Source of the DNA: Deltaproteobacteria bacterium
GTDB taxonomy: Bacteria > Desulfobacterota > Binatia > UBA12015
Length of the DNA stretch: 64,000 nt
NCBI GenBank assembly: GCA_029262355.1
Contig: JAJCZO010000416.1
Location: 74,973 to 138,972, forward strand
Direction of reading: 5' to 3'
The notes under the pieces were generated by a model that worked only from the letters and a program-made list of their open reading frames with translations, had not been told where the DNA came from and did no database searches. Below are positions 4,190 to 24,598 of the stretch, in pieces (position 1 is the first letter of the stretch; the number at the start of each line of letters is the position of its first letter). The position numbers and the translations under genes are program-made.

Positions 4190-6085
4190 GTGCCGCGGGG
4201 GTGCCTAGCTATCGCTGACGTGCTCGATCCGTCGAAGCCCTCACCCAAGGGGGCAGCCGACTTCTACGAAGTCCTCGCGCGACGAGCGCGTCCGCAGACC
4301 TTTTCGGAGGTCATTGGACAGGAGCATGTCACCCGAACGCTGGTGAACGCGATCTCCTCGGGCCGCCTCGCGCACGCCTTCGTCTTCAGCGGAATGCGCG
4401 GGGTCGGCAAGACGACGACGGCCCGAATTCTCGCGAAGGCGCTGAACTGCGAAAAGGGTCCCACTCCGGAGCCGTGCAACACCTGCCCGAGCTGCGTCGA
4501 GATCGCCGAGGGGCGCTCGATGGACGTTCTCGAAGTCGACGCGGCCTCTCAGACCGGGATCGATGCGACGCGCGAGTTGCTCGAGACGGTGAAGTACCAA
4601 CCTGCCTCCGCGCGTTATCGTATCTACATCATCGATGAGGCTCACGGGCTGTCGAAGCAAGCCGTCGATGCGTTCCTGAAAACTCTCGAAGAGCCGCCCG
4701 CACACGCGAAGTTCATCCTCGCGACGACGGCGCCGCAGAAACTGACCGCGACGATCCTGTCGCGCTGCCAACGATTCGATTTTCGCGCCGTCCCGGGTGA
4801 CACTATCGTCGAGACTCTCGTCGCGATGGTTCGCGGCGAGGGGATGGAGGCGGACCCCGACGCGCTCGCGGCAATCGCGCGCGAATCGGGCGGCAGCCTG
4901 CGCGACGCGACGTCGTTGCTCGACCAGGTGCTCGCGTTCTCCAACGGCCGCATCGACGCGGGCGCGGTTGGGCTTGCGCTCGGACTCCCCGATGTCGCCG
5001 CCGTTCGCGGAGTCATGGACGCGATCGTGGCACACGACCCAGCCCGTGCGCTGGAGGTAGTGGGGCGCGTGGTGGGGCAGGGCACCGACCTCGCTCGCTT
5101 CGCTCAAGACCTGCTGCAGCGAATCCGGAACCTGACCGTTCTCGTCGTCGCGGGGCCGAGCGCCCTTGCGGACTTGACTCGACACGAGATCGAGGAGCTC
5201 AGCCAGGCCCGCGATGGGCTCGCCACCGAGGACCTCCAGCGCTGGTTTCGGATTCTGATGGGCGGCTCCGAGGAGGTGGCGCGCTCGTCCAAGCCACGCC
5301 TCGTTCTCGAGATGGCGGTCCTTCGGATGGCGACGATGACCCCGTTGGTGCCACTGGACCAATTGGTCGCGCGGCTGGAGTCATTGGAACGAGGCTCCCG
5401 AGGGGGCTCGGGGCCCGGTGGCCAACCCCGACCCGGGACCCGCCCGGCCCCGACCCGGGCCGCCGCTTCCCCCGGACCCAGAGCGACGGAGCCCGAGGCT
5501 TCTCCTACCCGGTCCGCCCGGCCCGCGAGCGATCCGGCATCGGCGCCACCGAGGTCTCCGTCGCTCGAGAGAGTGCCCGAGGCGCGGCCGACCGCCGTGC
5601 CTGCTGCGACGTCCGCCCATCCGACGGCGGCCGAACCGCCCTGTACGCCGAAAGCGGCTCCCACGACCGCATCGGCCGCGTTGAAGCCCCTGGAGGATCC
5701 GGTCGTCCAGAAGCGCTGGCAAACCATCGTCGGGAACCTCCAGACGCAGCAGACGGCACGCTTCTTCCGTCTGGCATACAGCAGGGTCGTGGGTTTCGGT
5801 GACGGAGTGATCAAGATCTCCGTGACCGGCAAGAACGCTCTGCCGGAGCTCGAGAAGCCCGACACCAGGCGGATGATCGAGGAAGCCCTGGCCAACGAAT
5901 ACGGCGAGAGTCTGCGCTTCGAAGCCGTGTCGGCCGACGGGGCCACTCCGGGAGGCGCCGCCCGTGCCGAGACGGTCAGCCTGGAGCGTCAGGGGCGAGA
6001 AGATCCGCTGGTTCGGGCTAGTGTCGAGGTACTCCAGGGCCGCGTGGAGGGCGTTGTTGCGCGGAGCCGGCGCGAAGGTCCGTAG
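4190..6085 (+). CDS. dnaX: DNA polymerase III subunit gamma/tau
   Basis: Walker A (GMRGVGKTTTARILAKALNC), zinc-binding CxxC motifs (CNTCPSCVEI), sensor/box motifs (YIIDEAHGLS, SRCQRF). Pro/Ala/Ser-rich linker and tau-type C-terminal domain. GTG start at 4190; exact start is uncertain. Confidence 0.9.
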   Translation: MPRGCLAIADVLDPSKPSPKGAADFYEVLARRARPQTFSEVIGQEHVTRTLVNAISSGRLAHAFVFSGMRGVGKTTTARILAKALNCEKGPTPEPCNTCPSCVEIAEGRSMDVLEVDAASQTGIDATRELLETVKYQPASARYRIYIIDEAHGLSKQAVDAFLKTLEEPPAHAKFILATTAPQKLTATILSRCQRFDFRAVPGDTIVETLVAMVRGEGMEADPDALAAIARESGGSLRDATSLLDQVLAFSNGRIDAGAVGLALGLPDVAAVRGVMDAIVAHDPARALEVVGRVVGQGTDLARFAQDLLQRIRNLTVLVVAGPSALADLTRHEIEELSQARDGLATEDLQRWFRILMGGSEEVARSSKPRLVLEMAVLRMATMTPLVPLDQLVARLESLERGSRGGSGPGGQPRPGTRPAPTRAAASPGPRATEPEASPTRSARPASDPASAPPRSPSLERVPEARPTAVPAATSAHPTAAEPPCTPKAAPTTASAALKPLEDPVVQKRWQTIVGNLQTQQTARFFRLAYSRVVGFGDGVIKISVTGKNALPELEKPDTRRMIEEALANEYGESLRFEAVSADGATPGGAARAETVSLERQGREDPLVRASVEVLQGRVEGVVARSRREGP

Positions 6086-7154: not shown

Positions 7155-8144
7155 ATGGCAGAACCACAGACGAAGAACCCAGGCGGCGCAGGGTCGGCCG
7201 GCGCCAAAGGCACCACGCGCCCGCAGCTGAGCTTCCGCACGCTCCTCCCCGATGATCTCGAGATCGATTTCGTGGGGAAGAGGAAGTTCTTCCTGATCGT
7301 GTCGACCATCCTGAACATCCTGGCGATCGTGCTGTTCTTCGTTCGGCCGTTGAACTACGGCGTGGATTTCACAGGTGGAACCGCCATCCGCTTGCGTTTC
7401 GAGCAGGCCACGACCGCTGCGGATCTCCGGGGCGAGTTGGGTGAGCTCAAGCTTCGCGATTTGACGGTTCAGGACTTCGGCGAGCAGGGCCGCGAGTTCC
7501 TGCTGCGCTTCGAGATCCAAGAGGGTCACGAGATGAGTTCGATCTCGGACACCCTGTCGACCCTGCTTGCCGCCAACAGAGGCGGCGAGCAGAGCTTCGA
7601 CATCCTCAGTATCGACAGCGTCGGTCCTAAGGTCGGTGCGAATCTGCGCCAGCAGGGTTTCCTCGCCGTTCTCTTCGCAACGATCTTCATGGGGATCTAC
7701 ATCACCTTCCGGTTCGAGCCGAGCTTCGGTCTGGGTGCGGTGGTGGCGCTCGTGCACGACGTGCTCATCACCGCCGGCGCTCTCATGCTCACGCAGCAGA
7801 GCTTCGACCTCACGACCCTCGCGGCGCTGCTGACGGTGATCGGGTTCTCGGTTCACGATACGATCATCGTGTCCGACCGCGTGCGCGAGAATCTGCGCCG
7901 CAATCCGAAGTCTCCTCTTGCCACGGTGATCAACCGCAGCATCAACGAGACCTTGTCTCGGACGCTGCTCACCACCGGTACGGCGCTGTTCGTGTTGTTC
8001 GCGCTGTACTTCCTCGGCGGCAAGGGGCTCGAGCCGTTCGCTCTTACCCTCGTGGTCGGGTTCATCACCGGAACGTACTCGTCGATCTACATTGCGGCGC
8101 CGGTCGTTTTGTTCTGGTCGAACCGCTCGCGCCTGGCCAGCTGA
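7155..8144 (+). CDS. secF: protein translocase subunit SecF (no adjacent secD)
   Basis: 329 aa, about 6 TM segments. Conserved SecF N-terminal motif (NYGVDFTGGTAIRLRFE) and C-terminal membrane domain. Upstream neighbour is recR, not secD. Confidence 0.85.
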   Translation: MAEPQTKNPGGAGSAGAKGTTRPQLSFRTLLPDDLEIDFVGKRKFFLIVSTILNILAIVLFFVRPLNYGVDFTGGTAIRLRFEQATTAADLRGELGELKLRDLTVQDFGEQGREFLLRFEIQEGHEMSSISDTLSTLLAANRGGEQSFDILSIDSVGPKVGANLRQQGFLAVLFATIFMGIYITFRFEPSFGLGAVVALVHDVLITAGALMLTQQSFDLTTLAALLTVIGFSVHDTIIVSDRVRENLRRNPKSPLATVINRSINETLSRTLLTTGTALFVLFALYFLGGKGLEPFALTLVVGFITGTYSSIYIAAPVVLFWSNRSRLAS

Positions 8145-8735: not shown

Positions 8736-9920
8736 GTGAGGAAACCCGAGCGGCACGAGCCGCGATCGAGCATCGCAGTAGGCGCGGTCCTGAGTCTCGG
8801 AGCGGTCTTCTCTGTCCTGGCGTGCGGTCGTCCCGAGCTCCCGAAGCCTCCGACACCAGAGGTCCTCACGGTCACGGCGTCGACGGAGGACGTGCCGATC
8901 TACGGAGAATGGGTAGGCACGACCGAGGGTTTCGTCAACGCCCAGATCCGCTCCAAGGTACAGGGCTACCTGCTCCAGCAGATCTATCGCAACGGCGCCG
9001 AAGTCCGGAAGGGCGATCTCATGTTCGAGATCGACCCCCGTCAGTTTCAGGCGCAGCTCGAGAGCGCACAGGGAGACTTCGGGCGCGCCCAAGCGGCGCT
9101 CGGCCGAAGCGCCCAGGACGTCGCCCGCTACGGTCCGCTGTCGAAGCAGGGTGCGGTCAGCCAGAAGGAGTACGACGATGCGATTCAATCCGAGCGGGCG
9201 AACCGCGCTTCGGTAGAGTCGGCGCAGGCGTCCGTCGATCAGGCCAAGCTGAATCTCGGCTGGACACACATCACGTCGCCCATCGATGGCATCGCAGGCA
9301 TCGCCGTCGCGCAGATCGGCGACCTCGTCAGCTCCGTGACGGTGCTGACGACCGTGTCGACGATCGACCCGATGAAGGTCAGCTTCCCGATCAGCGAGCA
9401 GCAGTACCTCGAGTATCGGAGGAGCCAGATTCGTCGTCAGACGACCGGCGACGGAGAGACCCAGCTGACCCTGGCCGACGGCTCGATTTATCCCGAGCCG
9501 GGCAAGTTCTACGCGCTCGGCCGCGACGTGAATCCGGAGACGGGCACGATCACCGTCGAGGCGACCTTCCCGAACGCGAAGGGCCTTCTTCGGCCCGGCC
9601 AGTACTCCCGCGTTCGTGCTCAGATCGACGTTCGCGACGACGCCACCGTCATCCCCCAGCGCGCACTCACCGATCTTCAGGGGCAGTATCAGGTCGCGGT
9701 CGTCGGAAAGGACGACGTGATCGAGATGCGCAACGTCGAAGTCGGACCCACCTACGGCAGCGTCTGGGTCATCGAAAAGGGACTAAAGCCCGGCGAGACG
9801 GTCGTGGTGGAGGGGCTGCAGGGCGTCCGCAGTGGCGTAAAGGTCATCGCGAAGCCGGCACCCACGGCGACGCCGGCGCCGGTAGCGACACCCGGCGCGG
9901 GTCCGTCTGGAAGTCAGTAG
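8736..9920 (+). CDS. efflux RND transporter periplasmic adaptor subunit (membrane fusion protein), lipoprotein
   Basis: Lipobox (VLACG) after a hydrophobic signal segment. HlyD/AcrA-family architecture: coiled-coil hairpin region, lipoyl and beta-barrel motifs. Stop abuts the RND pump start. GTG at 8736 with GGAGG upstream; a start further upstream (ORF begins at 8640) is possible. Confidence 0.8.
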   Translation: MRKPERHEPRSSIAVGAVLSLGAVFSVLACGRPELPKPPTPEVLTVTASTEDVPIYGEWVGTTEGFVNAQIRSKVQGYLLQQIYRNGAEVRKGDLMFEIDPRQFQAQLESAQGDFGRAQAALGRSAQDVARYGPLSKQGAVSQKEYDDAIQSERANRASVESAQASVDQAKLNLGWTHITSPIDGIAGIAVAQIGDLVSSVTVLTTVSTIDPMKVSFPISEQQYLEYRRSQIRRQTTGDGETQLTLADGSIYPEPGKFYALGRDVNPETGTITVEATFPNAKGLLRPGQYSRVRAQIDVRDDATVIPQRALTDLQGQYQVAVVGKDDVIEMRNVEVGPTYGSVWVIEKGLKPGETVVVEGLQGVRSGVKVIAKPAPTATPAPVATPGAGPSGSQ

Positions 9921-12900
9921 ATGTCCCGCTTCTTCGTTGATCGCCCGATCGTGGCGATGGTCATCTCGATCCTGATGACCCTCGTGGGGGTGGTGTCGAT
10001 GGCCGGCCTGCCCATCTCGCAGTTCCCGAACATCGCGCCGCCCGAGATCCAGCTGTTGGCGACTTACGTCGGCGCGGACGCGATCACGGTCGAAGATGCC
10101 GTATCGACGCCGATCGAGCAGCAGATGAGCGGTGTGGACGGCATGATCTACATGTACTCCACCAACGCGAGCAACGGGCAGGGCACCCTTCGCGTCGACT
10201 TCGAGGTCGGCAGTGACGCAAACATCGACCAGGTGCTGACCCAGATGCGGTATCAGCAGGCGGAGTCCCAGCTGCCCACGGCCGTAAAGGACTTCGGCGT
10301 CACGATCAAAAAATCGACGTCGAGCCCGCTCGCTCTTTTCTCGATCTACTCCCCGAACGGCACGTACGACGCGAAGTTTCTCTCGAACTACGCCTACATC
10401 AACATCAACGATCCGATGACCCGAGTCCCGGGCATCGGTCAGGTCTCGATCTTCGGCGCAGGTCAGTATGCGATGCGCTTCTGGGTGAAGCCCGATGTGC
10501 TCGCCGAGATGGGGATCACGGTCACCGACCTGATCGACGCGCTGCAGACGCAGAACACGGTCAACCCCGCGGGGCAGGTCGGAGCCGAACCCGTCCCACC
10601 GGGGCAAGAGTTTACGTACACCGTCAAAGCGCAGGGGCGTCTGAAGACGCCCGAGGAGTTCGGCGACGTCGTCGTGCGGGCCAACCCGGATGGCTCTCTG
10701 GTGACGATGAAGGACGTCGCACGGATCGAGCTCGGCGCACAGAACTACGCCGTCATTGGTCGTCTGAATGCCAAGCCCGCTGCAATCGTCGCGATCTACC
10801 AAGACCCGGGTTCGAACGCGATCGATACGATGAACGAAGCCACCGCCTTGATGGAGGAGATGAAGGCGCGTTTCCCGTCGGATCTCGAGTACACGATCTC
10901 CTTGGATACGACGCAGGCGGTGCGCGAGGGCATGAAGGAGATCGTCCAGACGCTCTTCGAAGCGCTCGCGCTCGTGATTCTCGTCGTCTTCGTGTTCCTG
11001 CAGGGCTGGCGGGCCACTTTGATCCCGTTGCTGGCCGTTCCCGTCGCACTTGTCGGCACGTTCGCGATCTTCCCGCTGCTTGGGTTCTCGATCAACACAC
11101 TCTCGCTGTTCGGACTGGTCCTCGCGATCGGGCTGGTCGTCGACGACGCGATCGTCGTGGTCGAAGCGGTCGAGCTTCATATCGAGAAGGGGCTGTCGGC
11201 GCGCGACGCTACCCTGAAGGCGATGGAAGAGGTGACCGGCCCGATCGTGGCAACGTCTTTGATCCTCGCCGCCGTATTCGTGCCGACCGCGTTCATCCCC
11301 GGCATCACGGGTCGGCTGTATCAGCAGTTCGCGGTGACGATCGCGGTGTCGGTGCTGATCTCGACCTTCAATGCACTGACGTTGAGCCCGGCCTTGTCGG
11401 CAATGCTGCTTCGTCCCAGGCAAGAGATGACGGGAATCCTGGGACGCTTCTTTGGGTCGTTCAATACGTGGTTCGCCCGCGCGACCGACGGCTACGTGCG
11501 CTGGTCGCACACCCTGATTCGCAAGGCCGGCCTTTCGATGCTGTTCCTCGCGGTCATCGGCCTCGCCGGCGGCTTCCTGGGTTCGCGCCTTCCTACCGGG
11601 TTCGTGCCCGAGGAAGATCAGGGCTACCTCTTTGCGAACGTACAGCTTCCGGATGCTGCATCGATGCAGCGCAGTGATGCCGTCTGTCGTCGCGTCGAGA
11701 AGATCCTTGCGGATACGCCGGGCGTCGCGAGCTACAATACGGTCGTGGGCTTCAGCCTGCTGAGTCAGGTGAACACGACGTACTCGGGTTTCTTCTTCAT
11801 CACCCTCGAGCCTTGGGACGAGCGAGATCCGAAGGGACTCGACGCCAAGACGATCATGCGGGACCTGAACGTGCGCCTCGCCAAGGAAGTGCCCGAAGCG
11901 CAGGCCATGTCGTTCTCGCCCCCGGCCATCCCGGGCATCGGAACCTCGGGGGGCGTGACGTTCGTTCTCGAGGACACGTCCGGCGGTACCGTCGAGATGC
12001 TGGCGGAGAACACGAACACGTTCCTTGCGGCGCTGCGTAAACGACCCGAGTTCGCCCACGTCGGCACGACGTTCATTCCGGACACTCCGCAGATCTTCGC
12101 TGACGTCGATCGCGACAAGGTGCTCAAGCAGGGAGTCGCTCTCTCGGACGTCTATCAGACCCTGCAGGCGTTCATGGGCGGCGTGTTCGTGAACTACTTC
12201 AACCGGTTTGGGCGGACGTGGCAGGTCTACGTTCAGGCCGAAGGTGAGTACCGAACCAAGGCGTCTGACGTCGATCTGTTCTACGTGCGGAACTCCAAGA
12301 ACGAGATCGTACCGCTCGAGACGTTCGTCACGATGAAGAAGACCTACGGGCCTGAGTTTACGTTGCGCTTCAACGAGCACCGTTCCGCCCAGATCAACGG
12401 CACCCTTTGGCCGTGGATCAGCTCGGGGCAGGGCATGGAGATCTTCGAAGAGGTCTTCGCGCAGACCATGCCGCCCACGATGGGCTTCGACTACATGGGC
12501 ATGTCGTACCAGGAGAAGGAGGCGTCCGAGGGCGTATCGCCGGCCTTCATCTTTGGCTTGTCGTTACTCGCGGTGTTCCTGATCCTGGCTGCGCTGTACG
12601 AAAGCTGGGCGCTTCCCTTCAGTGTGCTGCTGGCGACGCCCATCGCGGTCTTCGGGGCGTTTCTCGCGCTGGCGGCACGAATGCTCGTGAACGACATCTA
12701 CGCGCAGATCGGCCTGGTGATGCTGGTAGGGCTCGCGGCAAAGAACGCGATCCTGATCGTCGAGTTCGCACGCGGCAAGCTCGACGAAGGGGAGACCGTG
12801 GTCAATGCCGCGCTCGACGGAGCGCGGCTGCGGTTGCGGCCCATCATGATGACAGCTTTCGCGTTCATTCTCGGCGTCTTGCCGCTGGTGATCGCGACGG

Positions 12901-14564: not shown

Positions 14565-14638
14565 GCCCCCGTAGCTCAGTTGGATAGAGCGCAGGATTCC
14601 TAATCCTGAGGCCGCGTGTTCGAGCCACGCCGGGGGCA
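14565..14638 (+). tRNA. tRNA-Arg (anticodon CCT)
   Basis: Cloverleaf read directly: acceptor GCCCCCG/CGGGGGC, D-arm GCTC-AGTTGGATA-GAGC, anticodon arm CAGGA-TTCCTAA-TCCTG (anticodon CCT), T-arm GCGTG-TTCGAGC-CACGC, discriminator A. No encoded CCA. Coordinates +/-2 nt. Confidence 0.85.
14596..14638 (+). repeat. attL: island-proximal copy of the 43-nt tRNA-Arg 3'-end direct repeat
   Basis: Bases ATTCCTAATCCTGAGGCCGC and CGGGGGCA are identical to the copy at 24556..24598; the T-stem differs (CGTG/CACG versus CTGG/CCAG). Confidence 0.75.
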
Positions 14639-14654: not shown

Positions 14655-15737
14655 TTACGTTTTTGACGGCTTCGGCATCGGAACGATTTGCCCCGTTTTT
14701 GCCCCGTTTCCATCGGTGACGCGCCCGGCGGCGCGCCGGAGGTCGTCTTCGTTGATGACGTTGTATCGCTCGAAGACCGTGCGCGTGCGCCAGCCGCCTA
14801 TCTTCATGATGACTGCTTCGCTCTCGCCGCTGCGGCGGTAATTGCGAGCCATGGTGCGCCGAAAATCGTGCGGTCGTCGACCCGGCACACCGGCGCGCTC
14901 ACAGGCGCGTCGCCAGACCTTGTAGGGGAAGAACTCGACGGGCTTGCCGTCCCGGTGGAAGACTCGCGAAATGATCGCGTTCTTCTGACGCTCGACCGCG
15001 CTGGTGCGGTCGCGCCACCGCTTGATGACGTCGAGCGCTTCGACAGGCAGGTAGACGAGCCTGCCGTCCTTGTTCTTGGTCGTCCCGATCCCGAGTCGGA
15101 TCGTCCCGGCTTCGAGGTCGACCTGTCGCCACTCAAGGCGAAGTAGCTCGCTGCGCCGGAACCCTACCCAATACGCCACCGTAACGAGGGGCCGAAGGAA
15201 GTTGTCGGGAAGCTCGGCGAGCAAGCTATCGAACTCCGCGCGCTCGAAGAACACCTCGCGGGCGTTGTTGACGCTGATGGAAGGGAAGGGAGGTACGCGA
15301 AAGAGTTTTCCCGCTTTGAAGCCCACGCGGAACGCCCTTCGGAGACAGGCCAACTCGCGTTGCAACGTGGCGGGCTTCGCCTTCTCTGCAAGGCGTTGCT
15401 CAACGTAGTGCGTGAGCCGCGTCATGGTCACGGCCAAAGCCAGGTCGCTGCCAAAGACGGGTTTTAGGTGTGCCCAGCGCTGGATGACGTCCCTCTCGTT
15501 GAAACCGTTCACGCGGTAGTTGCGGCGGAGGTCCTCGATCAGCTCGGAGACGCGGGTCTTCGCAGCGTTCGGCTCGTAGAGCCCCTGGCGCATTTCCACT
15601 AGCCGCTTGTCACGCATCTCCTTTGCCTCCTTGCGCGACTTTGCGTTGGTGGGTTCCTCCCGACGCTTTCCGTTTCCCAGCGGAAGGCGAATGTACCACA
15701 CGGTGCCTCGGAGCCTCACTCCGTCGCGGCGCTTCAT
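14655..15737 (-). CDS. int: site-specific tyrosine integrase (phage/P4-type)
   Basis: 360 aa. N-terminal SAM-like/core-binding region. Catalytic residues in HDFRRTMARNYRRSG and the Tyr nucleophile region IGGWRTRTVFERYN. Lies 16 nt from the tRNA-Arg 3' end. Confidence 0.9.
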   Translation of the reverse strand: MKRRDGVRLRGTVWYIRLPLGNGKRREEPTNAKSRKEAKEMRDKRLVEMRQGLYEPNAAKTRVSELIEDLRRNYRVNGFNERDVIQRWAHLKPVFGSDLALAVTMTRLTHYVEQRLAEKAKPATLQRELACLRRAFRVGFKAGKLFRVPPFPSISVNNAREVFFERAEFDSLLAELPDNFLRPLVTVAYWVGFRRSELLRLEWRQVDLEAGTIRLGIGTTKNKDGRLVYLPVEALDVIKRWRDRTSAVERQKNAIISRVFHRDGKPVEFFPYKVWRRACERAGVPGRRPHDFRRTMARNYRRSGESEAVIMKIGGWRTRTVFERYNVINEDDLRRAAGRVTDGNGAKTGQIVPMPKPSKT

Positions 15738-15916
15738 CGGTGGCCTCCTCTCTTTCGTAGGAACTCCGCGACCGCTTTGCGGATCAGGTCTCTGACGTTC
15801 GAATCTTCGTCGACCGCCAAGTGGCGAAGACTGCGGTACATGTCGCGTTCCAGCGAAACGGTGGTCGTCACCATGTCCGTGGCCTTCTTCTTGCCTGGGC
15901 GCCGCTTCGTCGCCAT
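15734..15916 (-). CDS. ribbon-helix-helix (CopG/Arc-like) DNA-binding protein, possible excision/regulatory factor
   Basis: 60 aa, basic N-terminus, then a predicted beta-strand followed by two helices (VSLERDMYRSLRHLAVDEDSNVRDLIRKAVAEFL). 4-nt overlap with the integrase start. Confidence 0.55.
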   Translation of the reverse strand: MATKRRPGKKKATDMVTTTVSLERDMYRSLRHLAVDEDSNVRDLIRKAVAEFLRKRGGHR

Positions 15917-15947: not shown

Positions 15948-16157
15948 TCAACGAGCAGATACGGATTCGCCGTAGGCAGGAAGGTTCAGGAGAAACTTCT
16001 CGACGTCGCGCCTGAGCCAGAGGGGTTGTCCGAGGAGACTTCGGCCGGGAGGCAGGTCGTCAGTGTGATGATCAACCCAGCTCCTCGACCGCCCCAGCAT
16101 GCGTGCGACCTGGGCGCTATCCAAGAGACGCTCTCCGTGATCGCCCTGGCAGCCCAT
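15948..16157 (-). CDS. AlpA/excisionase-family helix-turn-helix (HTH_17-like) protein
   Basis: HTH segment LLDSAQVARMLGRSRSWVDHH. The roughly 70-aa size matches AlpA/Xis-type proteins of P4-like elements. The ATG at 16157 is preferred over the TTG-initiated 137-aa version (15948..16361). Confidence 0.5.
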   Translation of the reverse strand: MGCQGDHGERLLDSAQVARMLGRSRSWVDHHTDDLPPGRSLLGQPLWLRRDVEKFLLNLPAYGESVSAR

Positions 16158-16593
16158 AGTTCCTGAGGAGATGTGGAGTCGGAGAGCCTCGCGGAGCACC
16201 TGAAATCTGGCGATGGTCGCGTCACAGTCCGAGAGCAGGTGAGCAGCCACTGCCGGCGGCAGTCTCGCGACGCCCTCCGGCCGCTCCGCGATCTCATCGA
16301 GGCTCGGCACTGGTCGAAGGTCACTCACTGAATCAGCTCGATCCAGCACGAGCCCGCACAATCTCCTGCGACACGCAGCCCGATCTGCGCCAGGGAGCCC
16401 CGCTCTGCTCGCGTTCGAGGTACTCGCCCACCGTCTGGGGTTCTAATCAGCCCGACGGATCGTGATCGGCAGCACCCTGGCGCATCACGGCTTTGGAGAG
16501 CGCCGAGCGCATCGGTCGAGAGAAGCGCCTTGCTCACCCCCAGGGACTCGGCTCGACGGGGCCTTTTGCCTACTTCTCCTGCTTCTCCGGCGC

Positions 16594-17097
16594 TCACGAG
16601 GCGAGCCACACTCTCACGCCCGTCCGGCGAAGCTCCGCGAGCACCGCCTCCAGCTCCTCGGCTAGTCGTTCCACCCCTGCGTCGTCGTCAGCGTAGAGCC
16701 GGTTCATCGCGGCGACAGCCACCAGCGCCCTGGCCACGAGGTCGGGGCGGTCGGTCGAAGGGGGTGCGTCCCCTGCGACGCGGAAGGGGCCGTCGTCGTC
16801 GAGCGTCCAGACCCACGGCTCGGCCGGGCCGTGGACCATCTCGGCGTTGATCTCGTCGGCAGCCCTGCGGTCGGCCTCGTCGGGCGTGAGTCCCTCGGCC
16901 GCCTCCAGCAGCGCGGCTCGGGCGGCCCACCGGGAGAACACCCAAGGAGGCCAGTCCGACGGGTCCGGGCCGAGGGCTCCCGCCTCCAGGCCGCCCCCGT
17001 CGTGACGGGGAGTCTCGGGGCTCGGCGCCACAGCCTGCGGGGCCGAGGCCAGCCCCCTTTCGGCGATGATCTTCTGAGCGAGCGCGAGGTAGCTCAC
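16594..17097 (-). CDS. hypothetical protein (island cargo), about 167 aa from a putative GTG start
   Basis: Open frame with high third-position GC. Start chosen at the GTG preceded by AGGGGG; the longer ORF (to 17226) would read through a strongly structured intergenic element. No recognisable domain. Confidence 0.35.
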   Translation of the reverse strand: MSYLALAQKIIAERGLASAPQAVAPSPETPRHDGGGLEAGALGPDPSDWPPWVFSRWAARAALLEAAEGLTPDEADRRAADEINAEMVHGPAEPWVWTLDDDGPFRVAGDAPPSTDRPDLVARALVAVAAMNRLYADDDAGVERLAEELEAVLAELRRTGVRVWLAS

Positions 17098-17209
17098 GGC
17101 CGAACCCCCTGCAGGAAAAGCAGGGAAAGGGGGCGAAAGCCCCTCCGAGGTGACCCGTTGCCTGCTTTTCTTGCCTTGCAGGCAGCCCCCGCGCCGTCCC
17201 ACCGGGGGG
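17098..17209. other. structured intergenic element: nested GC-rich hairpins (inner GGGGC-GAAA-GCCCC stem-loop within a roughly 16-bp interrupted stem, plus a flanking CCCCC...GGGGG hairpin)
   Basis: Read directly: CCTGCAGGAAAAGCAGG ... GGGGGCGAAAGCCCC ... CCTGCTTTTCTTGCCTTGCAGG, then CCCCCGCGCCGTCCCACCGGGGGG. Lies between the stop of the DUF3987-like gene and the start of the downstream hypothetical gene. Confidence 0.4.
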
Positions 17210-18388
17210 TCATGACTGCGACCCATCCCTGCTCTTGCGCCGCTCCAGGATCTCGACGGGGCGGCCTCCCGTGGGCTCGACGCGCACGCGCCACTCGGGC
17301 GAGCTGGTGAGCACCTGGATCGCTTTGTTCAGGTTCGCGGCCGAGATCCGGTCACCGAAGAGGGTCTCACGGATCCCTGAGCGGGACATCTCCCCGCCGG
17401 GCGGGATGGCCTCGGCGATCCGGTCGGCGTCGCGGTTGCCGGACCGACCGGAGAACACGGTGCGCACGCTGGCCTCGCAGTAGTCCCAGACCGCCAGCGC
17501 GGACTCCAGGTGGGGGACGTCGATCTCGGCCCGGCCGTCGAGCAGCGCATACAGGAGCGAGAGGCGAAGCACGTGGGCCTCGGCTCGGGCGAGCAGGTCT
17601 CCGATCAGCCCTGGGCGGTCGGCGGACAGCTCCGCGTACATGCCGCGCCACAGGTGGTCGGCGGCTGGCGTGCGCCGCACAACTCCCAGCAACTTGGCAG
17701 CGTCCAGGGCCTCGCGGGTGCGCCGGCCCAATTCGTCACGCTCGTGCTGGGGCACCACCCCAGGCGAGGGGAGCAGCTTGCCCCGCGTCACGAGCACCAC
17801 GAGGAAGCGGTTTCCCAGTCCGTTGGCCGCGTCGGTGTCCGACAGGTACCTCTCCAGGTCGGCGAGGGTCGAGTGCGCGATTACGGCGATGTGAGCACCA
17901 GTCGCGCGGGTCGGCGAGTTCTTCGTCAGGGTGCCTAGGCTCTCATCCCCATCCCAGACGGCGCGCAGTACGGGCGACAACGTGTTGCCGTCCCGTTGCA
18001 TTGCCTTCAGAGCCCCGGCAAATTCCGATTCGCTCACCAGTAGGCGCTTGTCGTCCACGCCGGGGTCTACGACTTCCATTTCGCCCTTCTTGTTCGGTCG
18101 CTCGATCTTGTCGCGAACGGAATGGATCAACCCCTCGCCGGACGAGAGGCCCGACGACACCAGTAGCGTGGGGTCGGCATCCTGCACGGTGCGCAGCGCG
18201 ACTTTCTTGCTGTCCCCCTTCCGTGCTCGCGCCGACTTGCCGACCAACAGCAGCGACTCATTCGTGTAGTGGCGTGTTTCCCCGACGCACACGTGCGCTG
18301 TTCGCCCCACGGCCGCTCCGAACGCGACCAAGAACTGCAGCAGGATCGCTGCCGGTGCTGCCTCGGTGTACGGCAGGTAGGCTCGCAC
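17210..18388 (-). CDS. DUF3987/YfjI-like protein (primase-associated family typical of P4-like integrative elements)
   Basis: 392 aa. N-terminal hydrophobic segment followed by a GKS-containing region (LLVGKSARARKGDSKK). The size and this region resemble DUF3987. Gene context (integrase + AlpA) matches CP4-57/P4-like islands. Assignment is by pattern memory, not a database search. Confidence 0.4.
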   Translation of the reverse strand: MRAYLPYTEAAPAAILLQFLVAFGAAVGRTAHVCVGETRHYTNESLLLVGKSARARKGDSKKVALRTVQDADPTLLVSSGLSSGEGLIHSVRDKIERPNKKGEMEVVDPGVDDKRLLVSESEFAGALKAMQRDGNTLSPVLRAVWDGDESLGTLTKNSPTRATGAHIAVIAHSTLADLERYLSDTDAANGLGNRFLVVLVTRGKLLPSPGVVPQHERDELGRRTREALDAAKLLGVVRRTPAADHLWRGMYAELSADRPGLIGDLLARAEAHVLRLSLLYALLDGRAEIDVPHLESALAVWDYCEASVRTVFSGRSGNRDADRIAEAIPPGGEMSRSGIRETLFGDRISAANLNKAIQVLTSSPEWRVRVEPTGGRPVEILERRKSRDGSQS

Positions 18389-18392
18389 TACA

Positions 18393-19226
18393 TCACCGGC
18401 GAGTCCTCGCAGTGCCTGAGTCGCCTGCCGCGAGGCCTATCTCGCCAAGCCACCATGGCGACGTCGCGCCCGTCTTCTCGTCGTAGTCGGCCATGTCGCA
18501 CGCGATCCAAGAGCCGCTCTTGGACGTTACCTCGCAGTCGCGGAAGACGATCTGCTTCCCAGCGGACAGACGGGTCAACGCAGCCCGCATCTCCGCGGGA
18601 TAGTATAGCCAGTACTTTCCGTACTCGTCGGGTGCTTCGAGTCCATCCTTCGGATCGAGCATTGTAGGAATCAGCACGACAGCGATGCACTCGTTCCCGC
18701 CATACTTGGATTGCACGTTGCTTTCGCGCAGGCAGGGCGTCACCTCATCGACACGACCGGCCCCGTAGAGCGACAGCTCACGTGCATCTCCGGGCTGCCC
18801 CTTGCCGGACACGTCATCCATCAACTCGCGCACCTGCTCGCCTACCGAGGTCTCCTCCTCCGGCAGCACCGTGCCGAAGATCGCCTTCTTGAAGGGCGCC
18901 AGCGAGTCGCGCCGCCAGCGCGCCTTTCGTTCCTTGACGGAGTCGAGTTGCGGAGAGCCATCGCGTTGAAGATCGGTGAGCGCCGCCTCCGCCTCCCTGA
19001 TGGCCCGCTCCTCATCCAAGATCCGCGAATCCCATTCGTCGATCGCCTTCCACGTGATCCCTGCGGGCGGCGCACGATCGACGGTCGGCGTTGGCGTCGG
19101 CAGAGCGCGAACCGGCTCACCTCGGGAGCATCCACACACGAGGGCTGTCGTGAGAACGCACGTGACACTGAGCCTTGCGGTGAAATGTGCCATTCTAGTG
19201 TAGCGTTTCCTAAATAGCTGTAACAT
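18393..19226 (-). CDS. hypothetical lipoprotein (island cargo)
   Basis: Signal peptide with lipobox-like LVCGCS. 4-nt spacing to the downstream DUF3987-like gene suggests co-transcription. Start could instead be the internal Met (about 19193). Confidence 0.5.
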   Translation of the reverse strand: MLQLFRKRYTRMAHFTARLSVTCVLTTALVCGCSRGEPVRALPTPTPTVDRAPPAGITWKAIDEWDSRILDEERAIREAEAALTDLQRDGSPQLDSVKERKARWRRDSLAPFKKAIFGTVLPEEETSVGEQVRELMDDVSGKGQPGDARELSLYGAGRVDEVTPCLRESNVQSKYGGNECIAVVLIPTMLDPKDGLEAPDEYGKYWLYYPAEMRAALTRLSAGKQIVFRDCEVTSKSGSWIACDMADYDEKTGATSPWWLGEIGLAAGDSGTARTRR

Positions 19227-19254: not shown

Positions 19255-19887
19255 ATGGGGTACAAGGCGGATGTGCGGCTGGTGAAGAAGGATCGAAAGG
19301 TCTTGGAGTCCTGGCTTCGAGCGCCGACGATTTCCCAGGAGATGGCGCTGCGAGCAAAGATCCTCATCGCCAGCGCCGATGGCGAAGCCATTCGGCCCCT
19401 GGCGACGCGACTGGGCATCTCACCCACCACGGTGTGCCTGTGGCGGCGTCGCTACGAGAGCGAAGGGCTGGCGGGCCTTGGTACGCGACACCGTAGCGGG
19501 CGCAAGAAAAGCAAGGTGACACCGGCCAAGGAGCGAGCGGTCGTCGCCGCCACGATGAAGGAGCCCAAAGACACGACCCACTGGAGCACGCGTCGTCTGG
19601 GCAAGAAGGTTGGGCTCAGCAACGCCACCGTGTACCGGATCTGGCGCAAGTACGGGCTCCAGCCGCACCGGGTCCAGACCTTCAAGTTCAGCACCGATCC
19701 CGACTTCGACGCCAAGCTGGCCGATGTCATCGGGATCTACCTCGACCCTCCAGAGCGCGCCCTGGTCCTGTGTGTGGACGAGAAATCTCAGATCCAAGCG
19801 CTTGATCGCACCCAGCCCCTGCTGCCGATGCGGCCAGGGCTTCCGGCTCGGATGACGCACGACCACGAGCGCGTACGATCGACGTGA
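19255..19887 (+). mobile_element. truncated IS630-family transposase gene (N-terminal HTH region and start of the DDE domain only)
   Basis: N-terminal HTH/winged-helix region (ISPTTVCLWRRRYESEGLAGL ... LSNATVYRIWRKYGL) and first catalytic Asp region (LVLCVDEKSQIQAL), then premature termination at 210 aa; the family is normally about 340-370 aa. Confidence 0.7.
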
Positions 19888-24555: not shown

Positions 24556-24598
24556 ATTCCTAATCCTGAGGCCGCTGGTTCGAGTCCAGCCGGGGGCA
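24556..24598 (+). repeat. attR: partial tRNA-Arg 3' end (distal copy of the 43-nt direct repeat)
   Basis: ATTCCTAATCCTGAGGCCGCTGGTTCGAGTCCAGCCGGGGGCA reproduces the anticodon-loop-to-3' end of tRNA-Arg(CCT) with compensatory T-stem changes. No 5' half of the tRNA (GCCCCCG acceptor strand) is present upstream. Confidence 0.75.

Follow-up and report, generated by a model that had tools for sequence, protein, structure and literature searches.

The spacer of 112 nt at positions 17098-17209 of the window, i.e. the whole stretch of 64 kb that was analysed, consists of two oppositely oriented sets of 9-bp repeats (iterons) and is very unlikely to be an RNA element. By analogy, it is most likely a replication origin (ori) of the iteron type that belongs to a ~10-kb element integrated at tRNA-Arg(CCT). 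A hexameric MCM-like helicase, its C-terminal winged helix, and inverted iterons at the 3′ end of its gene match the Rep/ori pair of SaPIs, which is why the spacer is read here as a candidate origin. The architecture of the repeats, the conservation of their position while the repeat sequence changes, the covariation with the helicase and the independence of orientation were observed directly.

The spacer is located within a string of minus-strand genes, between the TGA stop (17210-17212) of a DUF3987 gene upstream and the GTG start codon (17095-17097) of a gene downstream, and its sequence was found exactly as quoted in an earlier sequence-only reading of this DNA. The two flanking genes are as follows, L021, L023 and L024 being the closest relatives, with helicases that are 75-76% identical to that of the window:

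17210-18388, minus strand: DUF3987 gene (PF13148), MCM-like AAA+ helicase, presumed initiator
16594-17097, minus strand: downstream gene, 167 aa, starting with VSYLALAQKIIAERGL at the GTG 17095-17097; a homologue comes next after the repeats in L021, L023 and L024

An ORF called at 16594-17226 reads through the spacer, and its start had been suspected to be wrong. The suspicion is confirmed by the GC3 values, which drop across the spacer from about 0.85-0.9 to about 0.6-0.7 (background), and by the homology to the downstream protein of the relatives: residues 1-156 of p156 from L021 align to 17097-16597 with 60% identity, and the homology begins exactly at the GTG 17097. The ORF 16594-17226 is therefore an artefact, and the start of the downstream gene has to be corrected from ATG 17226 to GTG 17097. 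The protein encoded at 16594-17097 has no match in Pfam, PHROG or NCBIfam. Among the related loci, the gene after the repeats retains an N-terminal peptide M/V-S-Y/F-L-E/A/K-L/M-A in 24 of 98 cases from different phyla (loci listed for this MSYLE-type gene: L001-L010, L020-L030, L050, L056, L057, L077 and L104). Synonymous sites vary within the peptide, showing that it is conserved at the protein level; beyond the peptide, the proteins are short and highly variable.

The two arms of the array occupy 17111-17183, with 26 nt between them and the stop of the DUF3987 gene (17210). The features of the array, from low to high coordinates, are:

17111-17119, plus-strand reading: iteron A1, GCAGGAAAA (TTTTCCTGC as reverse complement), identical to the clade consensus TTTYCCTGC; the unit is also found in L021 and L024
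17120-17128: iteron A2, GCAGGGAAA (TTTCCCTGC as reverse complement), identical to the consensus and continuing the 9-bp phase of A1
17129-17138: degenerate third unit of arm A, GGGGGCGAAA (10 nt), with the counterparts GGGGGTAAAA in L021 and GGGGGAAAA in L023
17139-17156: centre, GCCCCTCCGAGGTGACCC, 18 bp, 78% G+C, between arms A and B
17157-17165, opposite orientation to arm A: iteron B1, GTTGCCTGC, two mismatches to TTTYCCTGC
17166-17174: iteron B2, TTTTCTTGC, differing from the consensus at one position and continuing the 9-bp phase of B1
17175-17183: degenerate third unit of arm B, CTTGCAGGC, forming an outer stem with 17108-17116
17184-17209: G+C-rich linker between the helicase stop and arm B, 26 nt, 88% G+C, containing CCCCC(N13)GGGGG; not conserved in the relatives

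Only about four of the six units match well, i.e. each arm contains two good units and a degenerate one.

The sequence-only reading had described the same segment as strongly structured. The structures that it named are present: the nested inverted repeat (arms 17111-17131 and 17154-17174, 86% complementary, with the outer pair 17108-17120 and 17170-17182), the inner GGGGC-GAAA-GCCCC hairpin (17130-17143) and the CCCCC...GGGGG pair (17185-17209). The three G-GAAAG units exist as well, and they constitute arm A of the 9-bp iteron array. The outer stem with its bulge is the pairing between the two iteron arms, and the GGGGC-GAAA-GCCCC hairpin consists of the degenerate third unit of arm A, the 5′ half of which pairs with GCCCC, and the start of the centre. 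The hairpin is a by-product of the inverted iteron arms.

The folding energies were compared with those of shuffled sequences. The full 112 nt do not fold better than dinucleotide shuffles (z = −0.91 for the plus strand and −0.42 for the minus strand), so that the description as strongly structured does not hold for the whole spacer; only a core of 76 nt (17108-17183) folds modestly better than shuffles, and its z values are −2.1 (sense) and −2.6 (antisense) as RNA and −3.8 as DNA, with 0 of 200 shuffles being as good.

The folding of the core, together with a terminator-like pattern on the sense strand at 17146-17126 (a GGAGGGGC-TTTC-GCCCCC stem with the T-rich iterons behind it, the T tail being interrupted), would be compatible with a function at the RNA level, i.e. 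as an attenuator, an intrinsic terminator, a hairpin for RNase processing, or a cis-antisense sRNA with a GNRA tetraloop. We regard such a function as very unlikely, as the energy of the complete spacer is ordinary and an Rfam scan of 16000-18500 yielded a single chance-level match to a miR family (E = 5.1, far below the gathering score) and thus no RNA family. The GAAA loop is not conserved either, since the closest relatives L021, L023 and L024 have loops of the AAAA type; the terminator-like site is absent from them, and their small hairpin faces the other way.

The orientation of the cassette in these relatives bears on the same question. In comparison with L021 (3733-3844), L023 (3734-3848) and L024 (2215-2326), the window spacer is inverted relative to its flanking genes: the sense strand of the relatives finds its counterpart in the plus strand of the window, i.e. 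in the antisense strand of the window genes. The scores for the whole spacer in this orientation versus the other are 94 versus 79 (L021), 93 versus 71 (L023) and 84 versus 68 (L024). The inversion is revealed by the asymmetric segment formed by the centre and unit A3. The asymmetric centre of 28 nt matches in this orientation only, with scores of 7 to 15 versus −5 to −6, and its score is reached by at most 0.1% of shuffles. The flip presumably arose by recombination between the cassette's own inverted arms, and the flipped form was retained. As a transcript of the window cassette would be the complement of that of the relatives, the cassette acts as DNA and independently of its orientation, which argues against the attenuator, RNase site and antisense sRNA proposed in the sequence-only reading.

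The recurrence of the array was analysed in loci with homologues of the helicase, which were collected from GTDB genomes (20), metagenomes (80) and IMG/VR (68), together with the three closest relatives that were retrieved by exact look-up. Tandem 9-bp repeats at or after the helicase stop were found in relatives of many phyla (about 160-170 loci compared), mostly as two inverted triplets, and the usual layout is 3+3 inverted arms around a centre of 13-19 bp. L021, L023 and L024 have a clean 3+3 array with the unit TTTYCCYGC, as in the window. Examples are:

L006: ACGAAATAA ACGAATTAA ACGAATAAA / 17 nt / TTAATTCGT TTATTTCGT TTAATTCGT
L002: GCGAAAAAA GCAAAATAA GCGAAAAAA / 16 nt / ATATTTCGC TTAATTCGC TTTTTTCGC
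L021: GCGGGAAAA GCAGGGAAA GGGGGTAAAA-GCGCCCTC-AACACACTCC-TTTTCCTGC TTTCCCTGC TTTTCCCGC

Each unit is composed of an A/T tract of 4 bp and a core of 5 bp. The core varies between elements, and includes TTCGC, TTCGT, GTCGC, GTCGT, CTCGC, CGCGC, TGCGC and CCTGC.

For quantification, a strict detector was applied to 200 nt around the helicase stop, which required three consecutive 9-mers with at most two mismatches per pair. Period-9 triple repeats were present in 46 of 101 target regions, compared with 12 of 2594 control windows (0.5%) away from the helicase stop in the same loci (L001-L104). In the independent IMG/VR set (L106-L173), the values were 18 of 60 and 27 of 3692 (0.7%), so that the enrichment over the controls is roughly 40-100-fold across the two sets, while the fraction of relatives in which strict iterons are detected is only 30-46%. 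Periods of 7, 8, 10, 11 and 12 were not enriched around the helicase stop of the 101 loci. Where both arms are strict, an A-rich arm is followed by a T-rich arm in 14 of 15 loci, and the gap between the arms has a median of 15.5 bp.

These frequencies bear on the possibility of a chance palindrome or a dispersed REP-like host repeat with no role specific to the element, which appears extremely improbable; the REP-like repeat had also been considered in the sequence-only reading. It is true that G+C-rich genomes yield many stable hairpins and that the energy of the 112 nt is ordinary, but the architecture recurs at the matching place beside homologous helicases across phyla with the enrichment given above. 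Moreover, the repeat is present as a single copy within the 64-kb window: the search yielded one exact match and one unrelated match with three mismatches. The iteron consensus forms no cluster elsewhere in the window, with 21 single matches versus 17 expected.

The placement of the arrays relative to the genes varies. The first arm falls within the helicase ORF in 12 of the 49 loci that have strict repeats, and in L008 the repeats are inside the downstream ORF. The left arm extends over the final codons of the helicase gene and its stop in L002 (6897-6924), L006, L010, L019, L039, L056 and L062; the A-rich repeats that overlap the end of the helicase gene also encode a short Lys/Ala-rich C-terminal tail, e.g. 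...AKKAK*. A different layout was observed in L004 (7198-7285), which contains six units of the TTTTTTCGC type in one orientation, three at 11-bp spacing followed by three at 9-bp spacing. All repeats of L004 being direct, the array cannot form a hairpin there, which is a further point against an RNA element. L017 (about 7185-7400) contains two ACGAAT/ATTCGT clusters around an AT-rich stretch of ~100 nt, nearer to the layout of SaPIs.

The protein encoded next to the array matches PF13148 with an E value of 6e-13 and 49.1 bits (cut-off 27), and it contains the invariant motifs GKSxRxRKG and DKRLLVxExE. A search of solved structures by sequence gave no match. An AlphaFold2 model based on an alignment of 60 sequences had a pLDDT of 93.6, and MCM structures were the top matches in structural searches with this model. 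The model ends in a canonical winged helix, with helices at residues 319-327, 336-344 and 350-361 and strands at residues 333-335, 366-371 and 378-383. As judged from the model, the adjacent protein is an MCM-like (SF6) AAA+ helicase with a predicted C-terminal winged helix. The relevant parts of the gene are:

17234-17446, minus strand: C-terminal winged helix, residues ~315-385
17369-17371, minus strand: specificity position Arg340
17348-17350, minus strand: specificity position Arg347; positions 340 and 347 are both at the end of helix 2 and the turn before helix 3 of the winged helix

To relate the protein to its repeats, the iteron core was classed in 49 non-redundant loci, and every alignment column was scanned for covariation with each core position. 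Residue 347 was the best predictor of the last base of the iteron (z = 26.7, versus 8.9 for the next column). Asn347 is associated with CGT in 13 of 13 loci, and His347 (31 loci) or Arg347 (five loci) with a final C in 36 of 36, His being combined with CGC in 31 of 31. Arg347 occurs with ...TGC in the clade of the window and, independently, in L042. The second position is residue 340, at which Arg is found with G at core position 1 in 15 of 15 loci.

On a neighbour-joining tree of residues 1-310, the repeat type changed about 10 times, a count that is approximate because of the long branches. Close sister pairs are the solid part of the sequence evidence for repeated and recent switches. L038 and L065 are 91% identical and have GRNK with TGTCGT versus GRHK with GGTCGC; L033 differs from L034/L037 (83-84% identical) in having His with GTCGC versus Asn with GTCGT; and L002 and L050 (86% identical) have Ser340 with TTCGC versus Tyr340 with TGCGC. 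The ~10 changes of the trait, together with sisters that differ precisely at these sites, argue that the association of residue and base does not merely reflect shared ancestry. In held-out metagenome and genome loci, His predicted CGC in 15 of 18 cases and Asn predicted CGT in 14 of 26, most of the remainder being without countable units; in the IMG/VR loci, the values were 21 of 21 and 8 of 9, respectively. The covariation is strong indirect evidence that the winged helix of the helicase contacts the iterons. Neither the 9-bp periodicity nor the covariation with a protein residue has an explanation at the RNA level. The MSYLE-type downstream protein was also considered as the reader of the iterons and was rejected, as it is present in only 24 of 98 loci.

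The covariation links the repeats to the winged helix and not to replication, and it would therefore also fit an operator, at which the helicase or another protein of the island (the ribbon-helix-helix or the excisionase-like protein) represses or times the downstream genes and no replication starts. In many loci, e.g. L006 and L019 (...TTCGT AGGAGG), the right arm indeed reaches to within a few bases of the ribosome-binding site and start of the next gene. We nevertheless consider an operator as the sole function unlikely: the repeats persist in loci that lack an MSYLE-type downstream gene, they extend into the helicase ORF or, in L008, lie within the downstream ORF, and a pattern scan of the spacer found no sigma-70-like promoter. 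In addition, the precedents for hexameric MCM-like helicases that carry a winged helix of the origin type are initiators and not repressors. The two roles are compatible and may coexist.

The origin, which we consider the probable function, would belong to the integrated element in which the spacer lies. Two repeats, attL and attR, mark the ends of this element of ~10 kb. Its features outside of the spacer and the helicase gene are:

14596-14638, plus strand: attL, the 3′ part of tRNA-Arg(CCT) (tRNA gene 14565-14638)
14655-15737, minus strand: tyrosine integrase
15734-15916: ribbon-helix-helix gene, next after the integrase
15948-16361: excisionase-like ORF
18393-19226, minus strand: ORF of 277 aa with a lipoprotein-like N-terminus and no family matches
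19255-19887, plus strand: ORF with IS630-type HTH domains (HTH_32/HTH_23)
24556-24598, plus strand: attR, a 43-nt copy of the 3′ part of the tRNA, 88% identical

This copy of the element may be a rearranged and possibly non-autonomous replicon. The homology of the helicase to its relatives extends to 18436, past the first start codon, and a stop codon closes the reading frame immediately upstream of that position. The conserved motif ALRGLAGD precedes the first ATG/GTG/TTG of the gene, and the window helicase is without the N-terminal ~64-80 residues of its close relatives (469 aa). The 5′ region 18388-18440 could be a mosaic junction or the end of a 5′-truncated gene. In the relatives, the helicase gene is preceded by genes for a Zn-ribbon protein (DnaG-like, a weak similarity) and an AlpA-type HTH protein, whereas the window has the two other ORFs listed above, which suggests a rearrangement or insertion. 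The ORF of 277 aa was considered as a primase and rejected because of its lipoprotein-like N-terminus and the lack of family matches, and no primase-like gene was found upstream of the window helicase. The shortened helicase and the missing primase-like gene indicate that the replicon may be defective or helper-dependent.

Among the four roles that the sequence-only reading had offered, the replication or transfer origin-like hairpin next to a primase-associated gene is the only one that fits the evidence. By analogy with SaPI Rep/ori and with Cch2 of SCCmec, the following mechanism of helicase binding, DNA melting and replication can be envisaged. After excision of the element, helicase hexamers would dock on the two arms via their C-terminal winged-helix domains, and the docked hexamers would melt the DNA between or around the arms. 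The helicase would thereby load itself, and bidirectional replication of the excised circle could start. Speculatively, the unit length of 9 bp, which is about 5/6 of a helical turn, would rotate successive units by about one sixth of a turn and thus suit the subunits of a hexamer. The composition of the centre (17139-17156) argues against an origin, as it is short (18 bp) and has 78% G+C, A/T tracts being confined to the iterons.

DUF3987 helicases are widespread in small integrative elements and in some phage-like contigs of environmental bacteria. One of these is L157, an IMG/VR contig of 56.6 kb, in which a helicase of 548 aa is encoded ~4 kb from a RecT-like annealing protein (4601-5548, 9449-11095); the contig has other phage-family ORFs, showing that the helicase module is also present in phage-like genomes and not only in small islands. 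A search of annotated plasmid and phage collections with the helicase gave one distant actinomycete match and no phage match. The lack of a relative on a sequenced plasmid or a cultured phage, for which an origin would be indispensable, counts against the origin reading, as do the limited fraction of relatives with strict iterons and the poorly matching units of the window. A wider reading, which we put forward tentatively as one that could quite possibly apply, is that the DUF3987 MCM-like helicases form an undescribed class of self-loading initiators, the origins of which would be 3+3 inverted 9-bp arrays and the specificity of which would be set by a re-programmable winged-helix code. In the proposed code, His, Asn and Arg at position 347 would go with CGC, CGT and TGC, respectively, and Arg at position 340 with G.

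The results provide a concrete putative function and a testable mechanism for a spacer that resembled an RNA hairpin. The large uncharacterised DUF3987 family gains a candidate origin sequence, a candidate reading domain, and two putative specificity residues that are backed by natural switches. For annotation, a simple rule emerges: the 3′ end of DUF3987 genes should be inspected for triple repeats with a period of 9. If the code is true, orthogonal replicons could be designed, or predicted from sequence alone.

Hexameric AAA+ helicases are known to assemble in pairs on inverted short units and to melt the DNA at the origins of SV40 (large T antigen, site II) and papillomaviruses (E1). These proteins are of the SF3 type and have N-terminal origin-binding domains, unlike the DUF3987 helicases, so that the likeness is one of logic only; a comparison with palindromic viral origins that are bound by double hexamers has also been drawn for Cch2 (PMC7581432). 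A classical iteron-plasmid origin of the RepA/pi/TrfA type, with direct repeats of 17-22 bp in one orientation, a dimeric or monomeric WH-WH Rep, DnaA boxes and an AT-rich DUE, was rejected for the window, where the units have 9 bp, the arms are inverted, the adjacent protein is an MCM-like AAA+ helicase, and an AT-rich DUE is absent.

Within the Pfam family, DUF3987 had earlier been predicted to be a replication helicase of mobile elements (PMC5862659). The window helicase shares the family with AgaPH, the DUF3987 genes of PICMI satellites (PMC10803314), and YfjI of E. coli CP4-57. AgaPH, a PriCT-DUF3987 protein, has been proven by experiment to be an oligomeric helicase; it has a "C-terminal small domain" and is encoded on an integrase-bearing element beside a tRNA gene (PMC11724360). 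An origin or iterons are not described for AgaPH (PMC11724360) or PICMI (PMC10803314), and the searched literature that mentions DUF3987 yielded no description of an origin for the family. CP4-57 yfjI was considered as a model example and rejected, as it has no significant BLAST similarity and no clear 9-bp repeats follow the gene.

Cch2 of SCCmec binds three direct iterons of 5 nt in the intergenic region that directly follows the gene encoding it; the direct repeats are essential for binding and the inverted repeats dispensable, and an origin has been proposed (PMC7581432). In contrast to the DUF3987 proteins, Cch2 is a helicase of the D5/Primase_Cterm type, and it has one set of three iterons instead of two inverted arms.

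The closest parallel is provided by the origins of the SaPIs (Staphylococcus aureus pathogenicity islands). They directly follow rep, carry two or more iterons per side, with the two sides facing opposite ways, and are recognised by a winged helix at the C-terminal end of the helicase (PMC9371898). This arrangement has been established experimentally (PMC9371898; Ubeda et al. 2007, as summarised there and in PMC7581432). The window array is likewise just downstream of the helicase gene, a position that is kept in the relatives, and has at least two iterons per side in inverted orientation (3+3 in the relatives); a winged helix is predicted from the model, and its residues 340 and 347 covary with iteron bases. 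The systems differ in that SaPIs have 6-12 iterons of 5-6 nt and an AT-rich centre (Ubeda et al. 2007, as summarised in PMC9371898 and PMC7581432), whereas the units described here have 9 bp, are typically arranged 3+3, and surround a centre of 13-19 bp, with 78% G+C in the window. Furthermore, the helicase belongs to Pfam DUF3987 and not to the DUF927 or D5-like proteins, and the hosts are environmental bacteria with a high G+C content. An iteron origin beside the gene of a self-loading helicase is an already known kind of element; the details that appear to be new are the 3+3 geometry of 9-bp units and the code that links residue and base.
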